From: Antedon mediterranea
Lineage: Eukaryota > Animalia > Echinodermata
NCBI RefSeq assembly: GCF_964355755.1
Contig: NC_092680.1
Location: 17,493,045 to 17,557,044, forward strand
Reading direction: 5' to 3'
Length of the DNA: 64,000 nucleotides
The position numbers and the translations under genes were made by a program. Every line of letters starts with the position of its first letter. Position 1 is the first letter of the stretch. This document shows, piece after piece, positions 45,101-62,900 of this stretch. The notes under the pieces were generated by a model. It saw nothing but the letters and a program-made list of their open reading frames with translations, was not told the origin of the DNA and did no database searches.

Positions 45101-48100
45101 AACAGTGTAAGAATCGCTTTATAATTAAGTTGTTTTTAAAAAATACAATAAAGTATGTAAAGTACTATATTTAACTTGAGTGAAGATGAAAATTTGGCTT
45201 ATAAATGTTGCAAGCAGTGTCTCACTCTCTTTAGTCAGGTGGTGCAAATCTTGTTGCGGTGGTATAAATATCACGCCAACATTCTCTGTCCACAGTTAAT
45301 GCTTCTACCATCCTTGTCCATCTATTCTTTATGTCATTTGCCCGTGTTGTTGTTGGTATTCCTCATTGTCCATCCACTGACCCCTATATTATTTCTATAT
45401 CAAACCTCCTTGACAAATGGCATGGCTGAAGAATCGCATAATTCTAACTGCCATCTGCTGTCGTAGCATCATTGCAGTCTTTGTGGTGTCTAGTACCCAG
45501 TGATTTGTCTTCCTTGCAGTCCAGGGAACTCGGAGGACTCTTCTATCTACCTACATCTCACAAGGCATCAATCTTTTTTGCGGAGATTTAGTCAAAGCCC
45601 ATGACTCGCATTCATATAAACATTTTTAAAGTTGAAAATTGTTTGTCTCGTAATGCTATTTAGATAAACCACTAAAATAGAATAAATTTTCTCCGTTTTT
45701 TTTCCCTAGAGAGAGAATAAGCCGATTATTAGAGGTATTTGCCGATGAGCATAGGGAAGTTCACAATATGACCTCTGGTAATATTGCTGTTGCTGTTGGC
45801 ATGAAACAGGTTTGATGCATTATTTATTACAGCTATAGGAGGTTGAAATCCATATAATTTTGCCTTGGCTACTCTTAGACTTAAATGAATTTCACACACT
45901 TAAACATAACCTTTGTGGAACCTACGCACTGATATATGATGATAATTAAGATTTATATAGCGCCATATCCGAAATAGCGCTCATGGCACTGTGGACTAAT
46001 AAGATGTTAACCTTTTCACTAACATTCTTCTCCCCTAAGGGTCACGTCATGTCACCAGCTGCCAACTAAAGTGCCATTACTTCTGTCCACGACAGTGGCT
46101 GTGTGAGCTAGCACACTGGGGTAACCCTTTATTTAGCCATTCGACTTGCTTAAGATAAATTGATTGATGTTGTAACACATATCAAAGCCATAGAACCAAT
46201 ATTACTACCTAACCTTTTTTTGGCAACTAATCCTATATTTTTCTTTCTTTAGACAATAACAGGGGACACATTGGTTTCCTCAAAATCAAATCTAGCGAAA
46301 ATCTCAAAGGATACTAAAATACAGTCAAACAGAAAGAGTAAGAAACATTTAGGCCAAGATGTTAAAGACAAAACAGAAAGGCAATTAGAACTTCTACCAG
46401 GCTTAGACATCCCTCAGCCTGTGTTTTTCTGTACTATAGAGGCTCCATCAATGGCTTATCAAGATGGTAAGCTTACATTCACTACCTTTATAACAAAAGA
46501 TTTATGTGATTTCTTTTTAGTTTTTATTTCAACATTGCACAAAATTGATGTGTCCATCCCATAGAGATAATATAAGCCGAAGGCTAGAGAGCGTACTCCT
46601 GGCTAGAAAGCGTACTCCTGACTAGAAAGTGATTTTTTATTGACATAATCTTATTTTGCTAATCAAATATTTATTACACCATCTTCATATTAAATTCCTA
46701 GCTCTTGATAACGCATTGGAATGTATACAAAGAGAAGACCCCAGTTTGCAAGTAAAAACGGATGAGGAAACTGGGCAAGTTAGTATCCCAAGTAGTTGGT
46801 ATGCCTAGTAGTTAGTATCCCAAGTAGTTGGTATGCCTAGTAGTTGGTATGCCTAGTAGTTGGTATGCCTAGTAGTTGGTATGCCTAGTAGTTGGTATGC
46901 CTAGTAGTTGGTATGCCTAGTAGTTGGTATGCCAAGTAGTTAGTATCCCAAGTAGTTGGTATGCCTAGTAGTTGGTATGCCTAGTAGTTGGTATCCCAAG
47001 TAGTTGGTATCCCAAGTAGTTGGTATGCCTAGTAGTTAGTATCCCAAGTAGTTGGTATCCCAAGTAGTTGGTATCCCAAGTAGTTGGTATGCCTAGTAGT
47101 TAGTATCCCAAGTAGTTGGTATGCCTAGTAGTTGATATGCCTAGTAGTTGGTATGCCTAGTAGTTGGTATGCCTAGTAGTTGGTATGCCTAGTAGTTAGT
47201 ATCCCAAGTAGTTGGTATGCCTAGTAGTTGGTATGCCTAGTAGTTGGTATCCCAAGTAGTTAGTATCCCAAGTAGTTGGTATGCCTAGTAGTTGGTATCC
47301 CAAGTAGTTGGTATGCCTAGTAGTTGGTATGCCTAGTAGTTGGTATGCCTAGTTGTTAGTATCCCAAGTAGTTGGTATGCCTAGTAGTTAGTATCCCAAG
47401 TAGTTGGTATGCCTAGTAGTTGGTATGCCTAGTTGTTAGTATCCCAAGTAGTTGGTATGCCTAGTAGTTAGTATCCCAAGTAGTTAGTATCCCAAGTAGT
47501 TGGTATGCCTAGTTGTTAGTATCCCAAGTAGTTGGTATGCCTAGTAGTTAGTATCCCAAGTAGTTGGTATGCCTAGTAGTTAGTATCCCAAGTAGTTGGT
47601 ATGCCTAGTAGTTAGTATCCCAAGTAGTTGGTATGCCTAGTTGTTAGTATCCCAAGTAGTTGGTATGCCTAGTAGTTAGTATCCCAAGTAGTTGGTATGC
47701 CTAGTAGTTAGTATCCCAAGTAGTTGGTATGCCTAGTAGTTAGTATCCCAAGTAGTACTAATATATGCATTAGATTAAAAATTGTTGTTGGTCACATGTT
47801 AATGAAGTCTCCCGATATTCTTTCTTCATGTTAATTATTATTGTTATTATTTATTCAAGCAAAAGATAAATTTTACAAAATATAATACAAATCACAACAC
47901 AAGGAATAAATATTAAATCATAGTCACTACACTAGCTGCCAGGAAAGCACAAACGCAGCCAAAGCCATTGTCACCAATTTAAGTGTGTACCTCTGTTGGT
48001 CTCAACAAGATTTGTTGAGGATAAGCAAAGATTCTTTGACTATTAACAAAATGCTGAAGGTTGAAATATGGTTGAAAGTCACTCTTTACGTAAAAAGACT

Positions 48101-51100
48101 AAAATTTATTTTTGTTATCATGCAGACAGTTTTATCAGGAATGGGTGAACTGCACCTTGAGATAATACATGACAGAATCAAGAAAGAATACAAGATTGAT
48201 GCTGATCTAGGACCACTACAAATATCATACAGGGAGATGATAACAGAAGAGGTGTCAGAGCAGTGTAAGTACCATATCATTAACTATGTTCTCTAGCCAG
48301 AAATGATCACATTGTTGTCTGTGAGCACTGGTTGGATCTCATTATGATAATCGCACTTCACATGATCCTTTAGATGACGACGGTTTCTGACATTTGGAAA
48401 CAGTATTGCATTAATGGTAGCTGATTCACGATTTTGAAATAAGGTAGATCCAGAGTCTAAAAATAGTTTTAAAATGAAGTTCTGAACTTATATAGCACAC
48501 AACTAAACAAGTATGTATTGCAAATAAAAAAAATGTAAACATCTATAAACTTTGAAAAATTACAATGTTAAATAAGATGGGTATAATAAAATATAATACT
48601 ATATTAAAATTAAGTTTTCTGCACTGCTCTTCAATTGATTATTTTTATCATTTTATAGGTAAATATCTAGTTTATTTTAACCTAGCATGCTTAGCTTGTA
48701 GCTTCTGCTTTGTAATTAATGTTTATTTTATATTTACCACAATAAATATTTTTAATGTGGTTACCACTGCATTGTTAAACAGCAGTGGAGTGTTCACAGA
48801 ATTTTACAATGATCATGATCCCAAATTACTATTTTTTATTACAATTAAATGTGCCTGTCAATGTATTTTTGTCCTTTTTTAGCAACTTTAGAAACAACTA
48901 TTGGTGAACAATTTCACATGGCTAATATAGGAATGAAGGTGATACCTACCTTCGAACTTTCTGTACCTGATTCAGTGGTTTTTCCAGAAGAAAATGACGA
49001 ATTTGTCTATGATCAGGATGCCATGGATGCTGTGGAGAATGGAGCGTTATCAGCATTATCAGCAGGTTAGAACAAACCCTTTTTTTTCTTAAGTATTATT
49101 TTCTCAACTAGGCCTAGCGACTAGTATCAGTGCCTAGGCTTAGCTCATTTTTGTGGCCATCATGCCTAGCCATCAGGCAAATTTCATCTACTACGGTAAG
49201 TGGGAATTAATTTCAATTGCGTTTTGTTTTACCCTGTAAATCATACACTGCGATGATAAGCACAAACAAATTCGTATTTGTTGCCTTTCTGTAACAATCT
49301 CAGCTACAAAACTTTAGCCAAGTTATTATCTTTCAATAGTATGGTAGAACTTGTGTTCTTTAAACTGATAAATACAGTGTCATGATAGTTTTGATTAATT
49401 TTAGGTGTGAAATGGATACTGTATTTGGTAAAACTTGTGTAGTAATTTGTATGTCTAGCGTCTGGAAATCTTTATGCAGAGGTTGACATTATTGAGCTAA
49501 CTGAGGATGCGGATGCTTTGATTAAAAACATTGGGTATAAAGTTGGTGAGGCATTTGCATCTTAATAAAAACATTAATATACAAGTTTTTGTCTTGCTAG
49601 GTCCACGGATCAGTGCACAAGTACTAGGTGTTGAGGTAGTCCTTGAGAGCTTACATGTTGCTGCTGGTACTTCTCTTGCAATAGTATCAGCTTGTGCAGC
49701 AAAGTGTATCCAATCGTGTTTGCAATCTTCGGAATCTGAAGTTTTAGAACCAATGATGAATGTCGAGGTAAAATATCGTGTATAAAGCTCTGTCTATACT
49801 ATCAAACTAGTTTCACAAAAAAAGTGTGATATGACCAAATATGGTAGTGATATGACCAAATATGGTAGTGATATGACCAAATATGGTAGTGATATGACCA
49901 AATTTGGTAGTGATATAACATCATCATTTCATATAATGAGCACATTACATTTTTTTGTCACATAAAGTTTGATAGTATATAGACAGAGCTTTAAATGGAT
50001 AAATCAGTGCTTTAGTCTTCATATAGTCTCACTAAAAGTTTGATATTCCACTTCACAAAGCAGACACAAATCCCTTGTCTGATCTGAAGTCATCTGATGC
50101 TGATGATCATATAGAGTGCAGTCTACTGTAAATCTCAATTTTCTCGTTTTAAGTTCAAAATAATGATTTTAGTATGGTATTTCTAGATATGAATAGTAGG
50201 GAAAACATTTTAAAATAGTGATTTAGTTAGTCCAGGTGACTTAATTGATTTAAAGTGATTTTGCCGCAAGTTTAGTTTTAGTTGAATAATATGTTGCAAA
50301 CTTATTTTTAAGGTTACCACAGATCAAGACCGACTAGGAGCAGTTTTAGGTGACCTTTCAAAAAGACGAGGTCATATTATTGACATTGAGAATCGGTTAG
50401 ACTGTAAGGTTGTTGTAGCTAGAACTCCATTGGCCGAGATGCTTGTACGTTTGTCATTTTTAACTTGCTTGATTTCCTTTGATGAGTTCCCATAAAAGTG
50501 TAACTCTAAATTTCCTTTTTTATTGAAAAAAGTAAATATTTTTCCAGGTTCAGAGAAAGAGAGAGTTTTTTTTATTTTAGGAAGTCTTTTGATTGGAGGG
50601 AATCCTTTAATTGAAGGAAAGGTAGTCCTTAAATTGAAAGGAGTGCTTGAATTTAAGGAGTGCTTGAATTGAAGGGAGTGCTTAAATTGAAGGGAGTGCT
50701 TAAATTGAAGGAGTGCTTAAATTGAAGGGAGTGCTTAAATTGAAGGGAGTGCTTAAATTTAGATGGGGGGGGGGGTGTTCTTAAATTGAAGGGAGTGCTT
50801 AAATTGAAGGAGTGCTTAAATTGAAGGGAGTGCTTAAATTGAAGGGAGTGCTTAAATTTAGGGGGGGGGGGGGGTTCTTAAATTGAAGGGAGTGCTTAAA
50901 TTGAAGGGAGTTCTTACATTTAGTAGAATCCTTAAATTGAAGGGAGTGCTTAAATTGAAGAGAGTTCTTAAATTGAATATTATATAATTGGAAGGAGTCC
51001 CTTAATTAGAGGTAGCCTTTGAATTGGAGGTGGAGTGCTTAAATATAATTTGAGGTAGACCTATTTAAGTCTTTCTCTTTCTTTTCTAGGGTTATGCAAC

Positions 51101-51654: not shown

Positions 51655-54600
51655 TCAAACAGTTGTCTGGCTGAAGGTTGGTCTACTGCAGGTAAAACTG
51701 AACTGCAAAATAAAAGAATTTTTAAAGCAAATTAGTAAAAAATAAAACAAACACAAAGCTACTCCACAGTAGTTTAATATAATTACAACCCAGTTGGTGC
51801 AGTACCCGCTGCTTACTTGGGCTCGAATCTAACCACTATAGCGATCAGCTCAAGCTGGGTGGTCAAGAGGTATGAACGCCAGGCTAGTGATCTTGAGGTC
51901 GTGGGTTCGAGTCCCACCCGAGAATTATGTCAAATTACGTCAGAGTAGGGCAAACATCTGACAAAAAACAAAAACCTAATCAATTAAATGGCGTTACTTC
52001 TCACTACTAACATAGATAATTACTTGAACCACATTTAGGTAACATAACCATTATAATTACCTCTGGTTTGTGATACACTTTGTGATATTTATCTACTCTG
52101 TATTCATTATTCGATGCATCGTTAATTATTCCAACAAGATTCACCAAACACATCGTTCCATCCAAAGAACTACATCTTTCACATACTGGACCAAAAAGAT
52201 ACTGATCATCAAAGTAATCCGGATTAAAAGTTTGTAGGATTATTTCTTCAATGAAAGTATGCATATTCTGTAAGATATTAACTGACTGACTCGGGATTTC
52301 CTTTAAAACTGAAAGTTTGATGAGATTTCTATCGTATAAGAAAATACTGCCCGAAGAAATTGTTTCTGTGTTCATTTGAAACAAACATGTGTCACTTGCT
52401 CTGAAATGTGCAAAGTTATAATAGACTTCAAGCCAATCAAAAACTTGGCAGCATTTTGCAATAAGTCGAAGAAATATAAATTCTAGTAAAACTTCACCAA
52501 AATCGAAGTAAAATATGTTAGAAGTATGATTAGAATCAAATTCACCTTGTTGTAAATTAATTTTGGGCAATTTGCAAAGAGGACAAAATGTTCCAACTTG
52601 ATCAACTTGATTAGTTATTGTAAGTGGAAACATCAACTGTGTTCCTACCAAGTACCGAATCACATAAGGATACACTCTCCAAATTCCTTTCATTCGGCAA
52701 ATGTGTTCCAATAGTCTACTGTCTACAATCCCTGTTTCCAGTAATCTCTGCCAAAGATCAGACACGGCTCTGTTTCTTTTGTGTGGTTCAGGTACATTCA
52801 CTAATAATTTCAGAATGTCTATTAATATCTGAGGATCACAAACAACATAATTCTGAAGTAGTTCATCAAGTTCATTGTATATAATGTCTCCGGATTTATC
52901 AAAGAAATTCAAAAGATGACGCATCTCATATTTCACAAAGATTTTGCTTGTTAACTTTAATTCATTTTCAATATCTTTTATACTCACAATAACGGACTGT
53001 CTATGTCGAAATCCGTTTAAAGTGTTTTTAAATAATAGGTATTGTACAGAAAACATTTCGCAAAAATATTTCAATTGTTTTACTTCATTATATATCCTTT
53101 CTCGTAAGATGTTAAGCTCCTTATCAAAGTTGAATGCGTTTTCAATAAAAAAGCAAAGTCGTCCATTTGGATGAAAAGCAAGCAATCTTGAAAACCTTTT
53201 GTAAAGATGTGCATTTACAAATTTATCAAAAGTAGAAAACGCTTTTTCATCACGTACACTTCCTCTTCTTGTTCCTACAAGAAACACTACAACATTCTCA
53301 ATTTCAACATGCATAGCAATAGATTGTAACCAGAATTGTAGCCGTTTAATGTGTCTATCAGGATTAGAAATCGCCGCTACAGTGTTGAAAACAACTAAGT
53401 ATACGCCTTGCTTTGGCATAAACAGATGGTGTGTATTATAGTACATTTCTTGTCCTGCAAAATCCCATAAACTTAGTCTGGCATCAATGTAACATTCGTT
53501 TCGCAGATCTGCTTCCATTGATTTTCTGATATGCACTATTGGTATCGATGACGTCGATTTTACTTTCATGTAAGAAAACCATTCGTAGATTATAAACCCC
53601 CAGATCGGGGAAATAAATGTCAACAATCTTGACATAGAAAGGCTATTCTCTTTCTCTAATAGACTCAGAAGGTTAACATTTCCAATTTCCCAACCACACA
53701 TTTTGCCAATATATATCCCAGCAATAAACCCAATAAATCTTTTAAGAAGGTAGTGCTGAGGAACATACCCATACGCAACAAATTTTCTTCCTAGAATACC
53801 ACCATAACATAAGAAAGACACAGTAGAAATAAAACGAAATAATGTACATATGTCAACAAAATTATGTCTTTCGAAATATATTGCTACTGTTATAAGCATC
53901 GTATTAAGTAGCAATACAATTATCACTTGTTTTCGACTAAGCCTAAATCTTTTGGTGTGAATGATCCTAAAAATGGCCAATATAGTAATTCCATAAATTG
54001 AGAACTCTAAATATTGCATACTGTACAATATCTTAGATATGTGTTCTAGTAAGACTTCGAGGGAAATTATTTTATGGCTTGGATGTATCATGCAACATAA
54101 AGCTATACATATGCCAGTCCTCCCACCTGTAGCCATCAGAACACCGACAAGGAACGACCCCAGTCCATACATAAAAACACATGTTATAGCCGTTATGTAA
54201 ATCACTAAATTTAATTCTATGACCTGTTGCTGGCCAAAATGTGTAGTGCTATCTATGAGTACCATACATATAGTATAACCACAGCCAAAGCGATAGGCAC
54301 TGTGAACATCACAAAATACCGAAAGACAACTGACATAAAACCACGCAACTGGCCCGAATCCAAATGCAAGTCCACCAAAACAGAACATTACTGTCATAGG
54401 CATAATGTGAAACATCACGTAATATGCGTCATGTAATACTTTTTGGATCGAAGCCTGAGTATCATTTTCAGACGTATTGTTTGCCTTTAACTTATCTTTA
54501 TTTTTATCCAGTTTAAGCACGCGAGATACAGTCCACCACGCTGCTGAACATTCATAATCTTCTAATGGAGTGTTTGTCACCTCACGCCATTTACTGTTAA

Positions 54601-54883
54601 CATCACTAACGTTCGTCTCAGCAGTGTTTGTTTCTATTCCGATTGTACTAGGCTCTTCTGGTCGAAATTCTTTACTCTGCAAACGCCTGCAGGTTGACGT
54701 TTTCCCGGCACCATGATCACCTAGAATAAGTACCTTCGTTCTGTTAAAAGGTACTTTTCCTCTTTCTTGGGCTGTTTTGTAAGTGTCTTTAATCTCGGAA
54801 TCATCTGCTAGAACTCTCAAGTTAAAGCTTCGCTTATAAGATTCAGAACATCCTCTCAAGTAATTTAATCCTTTCTGTTCCAT
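51655..54883 (-). CDS. ROCO-family ROC-COR GTPase with a multi-pass transmembrane insert inside ROC (exons 54883-52061 and 51702-51655, ~956 aa)
   Basis: G1 GDHGAGKTS, G2 STIGIE, G3 LWDFAGQEMYYNTHHLF, G4-like VGTR; COR LLNFFDKSGDII...VVCDPQILID. Donor GAG|GTAATT and terminal exon FSFTCSRP are conserved in the paralog. Upstream exons cannot be excluded (acceptor at 54911). Confidence 0.85.
51854..51922 (+). mobile_element. tRNA-like SINE head / pseudo-tRNA in ROCO intron
   Basis: A box TGGTCAAGAGG, B box GGTTCGAGTCC and T-stem GTGGG/CCCAC; acceptor and anticodon stems imperfect. Confidence 0.55.
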
Positions 54884-58737: not shown

Positions 58738-61700
58738 TTATTGAAGACTTGTGTCGGTGAAGGTCATTGGTCTACTGCAGGTAAAACTGAACTGCAAAAT
58801 AAAAAGAATATTTAATTACATTAAGCAAACGCAAGTTATTGTTGTATGCATACCGGCATGGTTATTCTATATTATATAACAAAATTACCTTTGATTTACG
58901 ATAAACTTTGTGATATTCATCTACTCTGTATTCATTTAATGCAAAGACATCGTTACGTAATAAAATAAGATTCACCAAACACATCGTTCCATCCAAAGAA
59001 CTACATCTTTCACACACTGGACCAAAAAGATACTGGTCATGAAAGTAATCCGGATTAAAAGTTTGTTGGACTATATCTTCAATGAAGATATTAATCTTTC
59101 GTATGATAGTAAATGATTGACTCGGGATTTCTTTAGACACTGAAAGTTTGATAAGATTTCTATTATACAAGAAAATATTGCCAGAAGAAATTGTTTCAGA
59201 GTTTATTTGGAAAAAATATGTGTTACTTGCCCTGAACCATGCACAGTTATAATAGATCCTAATCCAATCAAATAAGTGTTGTGATCAATTTTTGGCAATT
59301 TGCAAGGAAGACAAAATGTTCCAACTTGATCAACTTGATTAGCTATTGTAAGTGGAAACAACAACTGTGTTCCCACCAAGTACCGAATAACATAAGGATA
59401 AACTCTCCAAATTCCTTTCATTAGACAAATGTGTTCCATTAGTCTACTATCAACAATTCCTGTTTCCAGTAATCTCTGCCAAAGATCAGACACGGCTCTG
59501 TTTCTTTTGTGTGGTTCAGGTACATTCACTAATAATTTCAGAATGTCTATTAATACATGAGGATCACAAACAACATAATTCTGAAGTAGTTCATCAAGTT
59601 CATTGTATATGATATCTCCAGATTTATCAAAGAAATTCAGAAGTTGACGCACCTCATATTTCACAAAAGTATTGGTTGTCAACATTAATTCACTTTTAAT
59701 ATCTTTAATACTCACAATCATACATTGTTTGTGACGAAATCCATCTAACGTTTGTTTAAATAACAAGAATTTTACATAAAACATTTCCCAAAAGTATTTT
59801 AATTTTGTTACTTCACTATATATACTTTCTCGTAAGTTGTTGAGCTTCTTATCAACTTTCAATGCGTTTTCAATAAAAAAGCAAAGTCGCCTAGCTGGAT
59901 GAAAAGCAAGCAATCTTGAAAACCTTTTGTAAAGATGTGCATTTACAAATTTATCAAAAGTAGAAAACGCCTCTTCATCACGCACACTTCCTCTTCTTGT
60001 TCCTACAAGAAACACTACAACATTCTCAATATCAACATGCATAGCAATAGATTTTAACCAGAATTGTAGCCGTTTAATGTGTCTATGAGGATTAGAAATC
60101 GCCTCTACAGCATTGAAAACAGCCAAGTATACGCCTTGCTTTGGCATAAACAGATGGTGTGTATTATAGTACATTTCTTGTCCTGCAAAATCCCATAAAC
60201 TTAGTCTGGCGTCAATGTAACATTCGTTTCGTAGATCTGCTTCCATAGATTTTCTGATATGCACTATTGGTATTGATGACGTAGTTTTTACTTTCATATA
60301 GGAATGCCATTCGTAGATGATAAAACCAGTAATAGGGGCAAAAAATGAAAATAAATTAAAGAAATCGTGTGATTTTGAATCGCTATGGTCATCCCTTACA
60401 TTAATTAAATTGTTCACATGTCTAAATTCCCAACCACACATTTTCGCTAAACATATTCCAGCAATAAAACCAATAGCTTTCTTTAAAAAGTAATTTCCAG
60501 GTGCATACCCATACGCTTTAACCTCTCTTCCTAAAATAACCCCATACAACATTAAAAATATTGTTGCAATACAGCAAAATAAACTGCATATGTCAATACA
60601 ATTGCTCCTTCCGACGTATATTGCTGAAATTATACAAATTATGTTAACTATTAATACAATAATTAACTTCATTCGACTAATTGAAAATATTTGAGTCACT
60701 CATGCTCCTAAAAATTACAATTATAAAAACGGCAGGAAATAGGAATTTAAGATAATATATTATATTGTAAAGAAATGATGGTTTTTCTAAAAAACTGTCA
60801 ATGGAAATTACAGTTTGATCTGGATGTACCATAATGTACAATGCTACACAGATACCAGTCCTACCGCCTGTACTCATAAGAACACCGACAATGAACGAAC
60901 CAAATCCAAATATGCAGACAACTGTAACAGTAGTCACGTAAATCCAGATATTAAAATCTATTTTGTCTATGCTTGCAAACAGTTCCTTCAATTGTGTAGC
61001 TCTATCTAAAGCTTGGTTCCCACTAGAACGTAACGCAAGGACGTAAACGCAACGCAAGCGTTTTAACCAATGAAAAGCGAAGTTATAGACAGTCAGCAAT
61101 CACAAGCAAATAAGCCATCGCTTGTGATTGATCAATTCACATGCGTTGCGTTACGTCCTTGCGTTGCGTCGCTAGGAAGAACCACGCTTATGAGGAGCAT
61201 ACATGTAGAATATCTACAACCAAAGCGATATGCACTGTGGACATCGCATAATTATTGTCATAATACAAATGATGTACAACCACACGACTGGCCTGAACCC
61301 AAATGTAAACCCACCCAAACATAGTATAGCCGTAAAAGGGATAATATACCACATTAAGTAACATGTGTCCTCCAATACTTTTCGCATCAGTGAATTATTA
61401 CTAGATGAACATTTGCCCTTTGACAACTTATGTTTACCCTGTTTAAGTACACGCGATACAGTCCACCACGCTGCTGAACTCTCATAGTCTTCTAGTGGAG
61501 TGTTTGTCACTTCAGACCATTTACTATTAACATTACTAACGTTCGCCTCAACAGTGTTTGTTTCTATTCCGATTGTACTAGGCTCTTCTGGTCGAAAATC
61601 CTTTCCTTGTAAACGCCTGCAAGTTGACATTTTCCCGGCACCATGGTCACCAAGAATAAGAACCTTTGTTCTGTTAAATGGTACCTTTCCGTTTTCTTCG

Positions 61701-61813
61701 GCGGTTTTGTAAACTTCTTTGATCTCAGTATCGTCTGCTAGAACGCGCATGTCTAAACTTCTCTTGTACGATTCAGCATATCCTTTCAAGTAACTCAGCC
61801 CCCTTTTATCCAT
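58738..61813 (-). pseudogene. Tandem paralog of the transmembrane ROCO gene, disrupted
   Basis: Collinear with 51655-54883 over ORFs 61214-61813, 60677-61099, 59203-60699 and 58862-59170. At least 3 frameshifts, a deletion near 59270, a MITE insertion, and P-loop GKT changed to GKM. Confidence 0.85.
61010..61188. mobile_element. Harbinger-like MITE inserted in the ROCO paralog coding sequence
   Basis: TIRs AGC(T/G)TGGTTC..CTAG..CG.AACGCAAGGACGTAA; absent from the homologous site (CTATCTATGAG, ~54250) of the intact paralog. Confidence 0.88.
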
Positions 61814-62096: not shown

Positions 62097-62900
62097 AACA
62101 CCAAAACACTAGTATGGTGTCTTTGCATAAATCCCATCTGCAAACCAACACCAAAACACTAGTAGGGTTTCTTTGGTTAAATCCCCTCTGCAAACCAACA
62201 CCAAAACACTAGTGAGGTTTCTTTGGTTAAATCCCCTCTGCAAACCAACACCAAAACACTAGTTAGGGTTTCTTTGGTTAAATCCCCTCTGCAAACCAAC
62301 AGCAAAACAGTAGTAGGGTTTCTTTGGTTAAATCCTCTCTGCAAACCAACACCAAAACAGTTTGGGTTTCTTTGGTTAAATCCTCTCTGCAAACCAACAC
62401 CAAAACACTAGTTAGGGTTTCTTTGGTTCAATTCCCTCTGCAAACCAACACCAAAACAGTAGTAGGGTTTCTTTTGTTAAATCCTCTCTGCAAACCAACA
62501 CCAAAACACTAGTTAGGGTTTCTTTGGTTAAATCCCCTCCGCAAACCAACACCAAAACACCAGTGGGGTTTCTTTGGTTAAATCCTCTCTGCAAACCAAC
62601 ACCAAAACACTAGTTAAGGGTTTCTTTGGTTAAATCCTCTCTGCAAACCAACACCAAAACACTAGTTAGGGTTTCTTTGGTTAAATCCCCTCTGCAAACC
62701 AACACCAAAACACTAGTTAGGGTTTCTTTGGTTAAATCCCCTCTGCAAACCAACACCAAAACACTAGTTAGGGTTTCTTTGGTTAAATCCCCTCTGCAAA
62801 CCAACACCAAAACACTAGTTAGGGTTTCTTTTGTTAAATACCCTCTGCAAACCAACACCAAAACACTAGTAGGTTTTTTTTTTGTGAAATACCCTCTGCA
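62097..62900. repeat. 51-bp tandem repeat, ~16 copies
   Basis: CTCTGCAAACCAACACCAAAACACTAGTTAGGGTTTCTTTGGTTAAATCCC. Confidence 0.95.

Follow-up and report, generated by a model that had tools for sequence, protein, structure and literature searches.

We analysed a 64,000-nucleotide stretch of the crinoid Antedon mediterranea (contig NC_092680.1, positions 17,493,045 to 17,557,044, forward strand; hereafter the window, by whose numbering all positions are given), and here describe an intact gene on its minus strand at 51655..54883. By its Roc and COR domains the encoded protein is a member of the Roco family, and its Roc GTPase domain is split by a predicted multi-pass membrane domain. The features of the gene, with positions in amino acids (aa) of the protein and the evidence for each, are:

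52061..54883, minus strand: coding exon 1 of the intact membrane Roco gene, 941 codons (full-length alignment to relatives)
54572..54748, minus strand: N-terminal half of Roc (aa 46-104) with beta1, the G1 P-loop GDHGAGKTS, switch I with G2 Thr80, and beta2 (Pfam Roc stretch; alignment to LRRK2)
54437..54571, minus strand: helical linker into the membrane domain (aa 105-149; AlphaFold helix aa 106-135; W116 conserved)
53564..54436, minus strand: predicted Gly-rich membrane domain of about ten helices (aa 150-440; family hydropathy, AlphaFold, fold searches)
53486..53563, minus strand: conserved return helix, which leads from the membrane domain back to beta3 (aa 441-466; AlphaFold helix aa 449-460; ratio of nonsynonymous to synonymous divergence, dN/dS, 0.06)
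53069..53485, minus strand: C-terminal half of Roc (aa 467-605) with G3 DFAGQ, the conserved His485, G4 GTRRG and G5 ENA (Pfam; LRRK2 and family alignments; structure superposition)
52061..53068, minus strand: COR domain (aa 606-941; VIA, Foldseek, weak Pfam COR-A match)
51703..52060, minus strand: last intron, GT..AG, with a high-copy repeat inside (joint 51704-52067 in run X1)
51655..51702, minus strand: last coding exon, FSFTCSRPTFSQTTV*, 15 codons (matches the C-termini of relatives)

The predicted Roc-COR protein comprises 956 aa. From the ATG at 54883, a 941-codon frame runs open to a splice donor at 52060, and the remaining 15 codons lie in the last exon, which bears out the view, taken in an earlier sequence-only reading of this DNA, that nearly the whole protein is in one exon. 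The same reading treated the insert between the two Roc halves as coding and not intronic, and indeed the insert is coding sequence. Its 291 codons hold no stop, against a mean of 20 stops in 2000 shuffles, of which none (0/2000) was free of stops. Against the tandem copy in the window, nonsynonymous divergence (dN) is 0.36, synonymous divergence (dS) 0.80 and dN/dS 0.45. DNA contigs agree with the insert over 568 nt with 1 difference, and it is encoded in annotated proteins from ten bilaterian genera. Run X1 is RNA by guess only, and low-depth intergenic contigs occur in it as well. At 85% likeness its contigs span parts of the insert, each differing from it at 13 to 33 positions, and hence derive from paralogues; its joint 51704-52067 is consistent with removal of the last intron, and among the X1 joints listed none removes the insert with splice ends.

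The split of the GTPase domain is precise. G1 (GDHGAGKT) lies at aa 55 (nt 54721), G2 (STIGIE) at aa 79 (nt 54649) and G3 (WDFAGQ) at aa 473 (nt 53467); the 394 aa between G2 and G3 agree with the roughly 390 aa first estimated by eye. Pfam Roc matches in two stretches (E 1e-20; 74 bits against a cut-off of 27), and the closest solved structure by sequence is LRRK2 (E 2e-11). Across the family alignment of 73 rows, G1, G2, G3 and G5 are conserved, with K61 and T/S62 each in 69/73, T80 in 71/73, D474 in 70/73 and G477 in 71/73. In the AlphaFold model, residues 48-610 superpose as one body on LRRK2 Roc 1334-1521 with a Z of 11.9, 146 residues aligned and a root-mean-square deviation (rmsd) of 3.3 (range 3.0-3.3), the N-terminal half having mostly a predicted local distance difference test score (pLDDT) below 50 and the predictor already knowing the Roc fold; this weakly supports reassembly of the two halves into one G domain. 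Soluble animal and protist Rocos carry a low-complexity insert of 73-202 aa at the equivalent site, and the membrane domain thus probably entered a loop that already tolerated insertions.

The sequence-only reading had described the insert as some 290 aa forming 8-10 hydrophobic helices, and both helices that it quoted are present. The family bears this description out, the window copy alone only modestly so, as it is among the least hydrophobic members: 3 Kyte-Doolittle windows reach at least 1.6, and at a threshold of at least 1.3 there are 8 windows in the insert versus 4 in the rest of the protein. In the family alignment, ten segments have a mean hydropathy of 1.1 to 2.05. The AlphaFold model of aa 105-465 (73 sequences) has a pLDDT of 86, a predicted template modelling score (pTM) of 0.85 and no stretch below 50, and places bundle helices at 141-168, 176-188, 193-218, 226-252, 255-263, 275-311, 317-336, 339-371, 378-395 and 417-444, together with the linker helix 106-135, the return helix 449-460 and two short extra helices. 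The ten-segment picture is therefore that of the family average and the model, not of the window copy by itself. With segments set by the model and hydropathy, the family-mean net charges of the six predicted inner stretches are +0.6, -0.6, +0.8, +2.0, +2.0 and +1.8, and those of the five predicted outer loops 0.0, -1.4, -0.7, +0.1 and -0.1. Net positive charge in five of the six inner stretches and values near zero or negative in the outer loops fit, loop 2-3 excepted, an even helix count with both ends cytosolic. An even count with both Roc halves on the cytosolic side had been anticipated, and such a topology, with about ten helices, is probable by prediction.

A Foldseek search of the insert model alone, which had been proposed together with the sequence-only reading, gave no fold match in the PDB (best E 0.18). 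VIA against 48,161 chains returned nothing at Z of at least 8, the best being a generic helical bundle (Z 6.8, rmsd 5.7, 84 aligned), and viral structures gave no match better than E 0.5. The membrane domain is confidently modelled and has no solved counterpart among the structures searched, which does not in itself prove a new fold; matches this weak neither place it in a known channel, transporter or 7TM receptor family nor set it apart from them. At the sequence level, no family in Pfam, NCBIfam or PADLOC matched the insert, PDB sequences gave none (best E 1.4) and the ESM Atlas no usable match; a word-seeded, low-sensitivity search for a stand-alone domain of 152-531 aa found none but one family fragment, and HHalign found no internal two-fold repeat (probability 3%). 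Pfam did give two weak rows, each for a single protein, that were not believed: New_glue (E 0.002) and TgpA_N (E 0.015).

The region after Roc, which had been called COR from the sequence, is supported as such by structure: model residues 612-940 align to the Chlorobium tepidum COR structure 3dpt (VIA Z 12.2, 212 aligned, rmsd 9.6), and Foldseek matches the region to LRRK1 (E 1e-8). Pfam COR-A stays below its cut-off in the window copy (E 0.0013) and exceeds it in several relatives. The Pfam scan of the window copy contains no leucine-rich repeat (LRR), ankyrin, death or kinase domain, in line with what had been read from the sequence. Nor is there an N-terminal repeat sensor: 54 residues precede G1 in the window copy and about 53 in the family, at most 80 do so in 71/73 aligned rows (4 of them N-truncated fragments), and Pfam scans of the window copy and its relatives contain no repeat family there. 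An effector domain follows COR in 17/47 relatives scanned (Death in 13, TIR_2 in 3, one of them under the cut-off, and caspase in 1), and a further scan of 27 proteins (2 repeated) added one Death and one weak TIR domain. Death, TIR and caspase domains recur C-terminally in sponge, mussel, nemertean, hemichordate and amphioxus members. One membrane Roco of Branchiostoma floridae (P0045) ends in a full caspase domain (Pfam E 1e-56).

How widely the architecture occurs was addressed by two rounds of searching. The first retrieved 31 proteins among 6378 candidates, 29 of them from Antedon mediterranea and Anneissia japonica and one from Ptychodera, with the closest relative 88% identical; one protist Roco among the 31 is unrelated. 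One Antedon fragment added by profile search brings the crinoid relatives to 30 in the two species. HMMER against 1.84 billion representatives then gave 3192 matches, of which the best 150 were considered. Of 190 proteins collected, 165 contain both Roc halves and the other 25 were left out, the sample being biased towards the neighbourhood of the query. Among the 165, the segment between the halves is of membrane type in 96 (244-396 aa, with at least 2 hydrophobic windows) and short in 69 (73-202 aa, with none).

An iterated profile built from the segment only links 71/96 of these inserts, reversed decoys scoring at most 10.5 bits and short segments at most 7.1. Taxon names were looked up for 30 representatives. 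The linked members come from Asterias, Patiria, Amphiura, Ptychodera, Glandiceps, Branchiostoma, five Mytilus species, the nemertean Tubulanus and the crinoids; unlinked inserts at the equivalent site occur in the corals Montipora and Oculina, the sponge Oscarella and single Anneissia and Amphiura proteins. Vertebrates, arthropods and nematodes are absent among the named members, no survey having been aimed at these groups. The named members are annotated as 'uncharacterized' or 'hypothetical', except for a death-domain label in some mussel records. Coral-type inserts did not align with the main family profile (HHalign probability 0.1%), and the coral-type and sponge Rocos P0100, P0159, P0185, P0190, P0105 and P0099 have hydrophobic inserts without detectable similarity to the main family. 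Coral and sponge inserts are either a diverged form of the main domain or independent insertions.

A quick IQ-TREE phylogeny was computed on Roc and COR columns only, for 105/165 rows, after removal of near-duplicates, of rows with many gaps and, in the large short-insert clade, of every other row. It places 45 membrane-type rows, 42 linked and 3 unlinked, in one clade (Shimodaira-Hasegawa-like approximate likelihood ratio test, 99), and because the insert itself played no part in it, this phylogeny independently supports a single origin of the main membrane group. A coral-containing group (15 rows, 100) and a sponge pair (100) stand beside the main clade in an unresolved fork with four short-insert rows; a single origin of all membrane-type Rocos is neither shown nor excluded by the Roc-COR tree. 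The three unlinked members of the main clade are P0042, P0071 and P0075, whose inserts reflect either extreme divergence or replacement of the membrane domain. Altogether, this is an old and widespread animal family with a predicted GTPase-embedded membrane domain, a point that goes beyond the sequence-only reading.

The window contains a second, broken member of the family:

58738..61813, minus strand: tandem paralogue of like build, disrupted by insertions of 4 nt, 1 nt and 182 nt (the last palindromic) and by a deletion of 103 nt

In its P-loop, GKM replaces GKT. One contig of run X2 is without the 4-nt insertion near 61249 and another contig has lost 14 nt near 60617, which suggests that haplotypes carry different lesions. 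The 182-nt insertion (about 61008-61190) resembles a miniature inverted-repeat transposable element; its arms are inverted, and its depth is very high in both runs. A comparison of the two window copies at four-fold sites gives 26/52 differences in the membrane domain versus 14/102 in aa 441-775 (Roc-C/COR-A; p 4e-6), the change being abrupt where the last helix ends. This contrast suggests gene conversion in the GTPase-COR part, with the membrane domains staying distinct. Within the membrane domain, dN/dS is 0.73 in the outer loops and 0.24 in the inner loops.

Since the G motifs are retained on either side of the insert, no N-terminal repeat sensor is present, many relatives carry effectors, and the genes expand and decay in tandem, we favour, with moderate confidence, a membrane receptor-switch in a single chain that acts in innate immunity or cell stress. 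An immune-gene-like mode of evolution speaks for it, seen in the 30 crinoid relatives, the broken tandem copy, the four-fold divergence of the membrane domain relative to Roc-C/COR-A and the higher dN/dS of the outer loops. Taken further, and more tentatively, the family might be an old group of immune receptors in animal membranes, with members in sponges, amphioxus and lineages between. A ten-helix domain with a new fold, set between the switches, would then detect a ligand or damage to the membrane and trigger the Death, TIR or caspase effector that the chain itself carries, so that one polypeptide would be receptor, G protein and effector; the effector-less crinoid copies would be diversified sensor partners, like those of sensor-helper pairs of nucleotide-binding LRR (NLR) proteins.

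In the mechanism that we propose, about ten predicted helices would cross the membrane with both ends cytosolic, letting the two Roc halves meet, and two modelled linker helices would join the bundle with the beta2-beta3 hairpin, which lies between switch I and switch II. Tied in at this point, the domain would be placed to control the Roco dimer-monomer cycle. The fast-changing membrane domain would stand in for the LRR sensor, and a ligand or membrane damage might move the linker helices and alter the nucleotide state. With GTP, a bacterial Roco alternates between dimer and monomer (PMC5714945), and switch II touches COR in Roco (PMC6337361); by analogy, the altered nucleotide state could shift the COR-mediated dimer-monomer balance and so cluster or release the effector domain. 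The effector-less crinoid copies may signal through a partner Roco or an adaptor, or act as decoys. What drives the Roco GTP cycle is still debated, LRRK2 included, and a natural Roco with a switch-embedded membrane domain would be a direct means of testing switch-region control over the Roc-COR cycle and the downstream domain.

Several observations weigh against the receptor-switch. Foremost is the missing effector in the crinoid copies, which is the main unexplained point: none of the 7/7 crinoid proteins scanned, window copy included, has an effector domain, and neither have 30/47 of the relatives scanned, some of which look truncated. In evolutionary terms, dN/dS exceeds 1 in no region, for a single pair of which one member is a pseudogene; the regions of the divergence comparison were chosen after the data were seen; and the low Roc/COR divergence could come from gene conversion favouring already similar DNA. 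Structurally, loop 2-3 departs from the positive-inside pattern, the helices at aa 176-188 and 255-263 are short and may be re-entrant, and the full-length AlphaFold model (26 sequences) reaches a pLDDT of only 55, with most of the Roc N-terminal half below 50. G4 reads GTRRG in the window copy and acidic GTRRD/E in many relatives, and Gly at this position may weaken guanine binding. Run X1 at 97% likeness has almost no cover over the insert of the window copy.

Among the alternatives, the one that fares best, while still unlikely, makes the membrane domain the output, in the form of a pore, channel or exporter gated by GTP or by the dimer state and akin to the bacterial membrane nucleoside triphosphatase (NTPase) Tmn, which exports Mg2+ when triggered (PMC13001434). 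It would explain why crinoid copies have no other effector and are yet expanded with intact G motifs, and it accords with the conserved Gly motifs, the two short helices and the conserved charged residues within the membrane or close to it (D192, R198, R255, R366 and E434). However, no position of the membrane domain is invariant across the family and three main-clade inserts have diverged past detection, which would be unusual for a conduction pathway, and relatives with a Death, TIR or caspase effector of their own would then be sensorless. It is these many members, with a C-terminal effector and no N-terminal sensor, that favour a receptor over a pore.

The domain could also do no more than anchor the Roco at a membrane or sort it there while sensing takes place elsewhere, which we consider improbable. 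LRRK2 dimerises and gains activity at membranes (PMC6337361), the 1-2 helices at the C-terminus of some Ectocarpus Rocos have been proposed to be anchors (PMC3341825), and fast divergence suits low constraint. Yet ten helices with fold and motifs conserved across phyla far exceed the needs of an anchor, and the position between the two switches would be the least neutral site for one.

Quite improbable too is a receptor or sensor with a non-immune task, be it chemosensation, the sensing of lipids or of osmotic state, or the quality control of organelles: the crinoid copies are without an immune-type domain, and chemoreceptor families likewise expand in tandem and diverge in their membrane domains, but the recurrence of C-terminal Death, TIR and caspase domains from sponge to amphioxus members argues otherwise. 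The possibilities that the insert is intronic, misassembled or a soluble helical domain, to which the modest hydrophobicity of the window copy and the uncovered insert in the RNA-like run at 97% might point, can be set aside in view of the open frame, the dN/dS, the agreement of the DNA contigs, the ten bilaterian genera, the ten hydropathic segments of the family and the X1 paralogue contigs across the insert.

Around the Roco gene, an exon of an elongation factor G-like gene lies at 47910-48296 on the plus strand (Pfam EFG_III, E 4e-11), tail to tail with it; the exon may resemble mitochondrial GFM2. The high-copy repeat in the last intron (about 51790-51965) has very high depth at 51802-51935 and looks tRNA-like by eye; ARAGORN called no tRNA in it, and it is probably a short interspersed nuclear element (SINE). 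By eye, tandem arrays flank the two-gene cluster, with units of about 50 nt at about 62130-62870 and of about 20 nt at about 50650-51000.

To our knowledge, Roco proteins characterised to date are soluble and depend on partners to get to membranes. The protein shares with LRRK1, LRRK2, DAPK1, MFHAS1 and the C. tepidum Roco the order of Roc and COR, and its best sequence and structure matches are LRRK2, LRRK1 and the bacterial Roco. Unlike them, it has a predicted multi-pass domain of about 290 aa inside Roc and no LRR, ankyrin, WD40 or kinase domain; the residue after DxxG is Gln, where LRRK2 has Arg, and the window copy is missing the acidic G4 residue.

In the text searched, figures not covered, no Roco is described whose Roc contains a membrane domain. 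The excerpts of PMC11378527, PMC4104024, PMC9334734, PMC5094078 and the preprints bioRxiv 10.1101/2023.01.24.525353 and 10.64898/2026.04.20.719644 describe other Roco builds, none of this kind, although Fig. 2 of PMC11378527 (about forty animal Roco architectures) or Fig. 3A of the latter preprint (legend: Roc, COR, TM) might depict a member. The claim of the sequence-only reading that no equivalent had been described therefore stands for Roco GTPases in this literature; it does not stand for P-loop NTPases at large, in which YobI/Tmn and KAP proteins are a precedent for internal helices (PMC13001434).

Three systems come closest in parts. AP-GTPase conflict proteins (Kaur et al. 2021, PMC8195603) combine N-terminal LRRs, Roc-COR and variable C-terminal effectors. 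With these and with invertebrate Roc-COR-TIR/Death proteins (PMC9334734, PMC5094078) the family shares the Roc-COR core and, in many relatives, a C-terminal effector; in place of their N-terminal LRR or soluble sensor, it has an N-terminus of about 53 residues and an internal membrane domain. The window copy has neither an N-terminal LRR or repeat sensor nor an effector domain at its C-terminus. Ectocarpus ROCOs also have predicted membrane helices, clustered expansion and a proposed role as immune receptors, but their one or two helices follow COR as an anchor, their LRR is kept, and the excerpt of PMC3341825 reports none inside Roc.

YobI/Tmn, in which two helices are inserted in the P-loop domain and Mg2+ export serves phage defence, and the KAP proteins (Kidins220/ARMS, PifA) likewise carry membrane helices within a P-loop NTPase, the bacterial defence role being theirs (PMC13001434). 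They are ATPases of other classes with 2-4 helices, whereas here a Ras-like GTPase with about ten predicted helices is followed by COR. Neither a KAP nor a YobI profile matched in the Pfam, NCBIfam and PADLOC scans, the core being a Ras-like Roc with DxxG, and the trait of helices inside the NTPase domain is shared as architecture only, by prediction. Set against these systems, the window protein represents an undescribed animal Roco subfamily with a predicted membrane domain of unassigned fold inside Roc, and indicates a putative receptor family that has been overlooked in corals, mussels, echinoderms and amphioxus.

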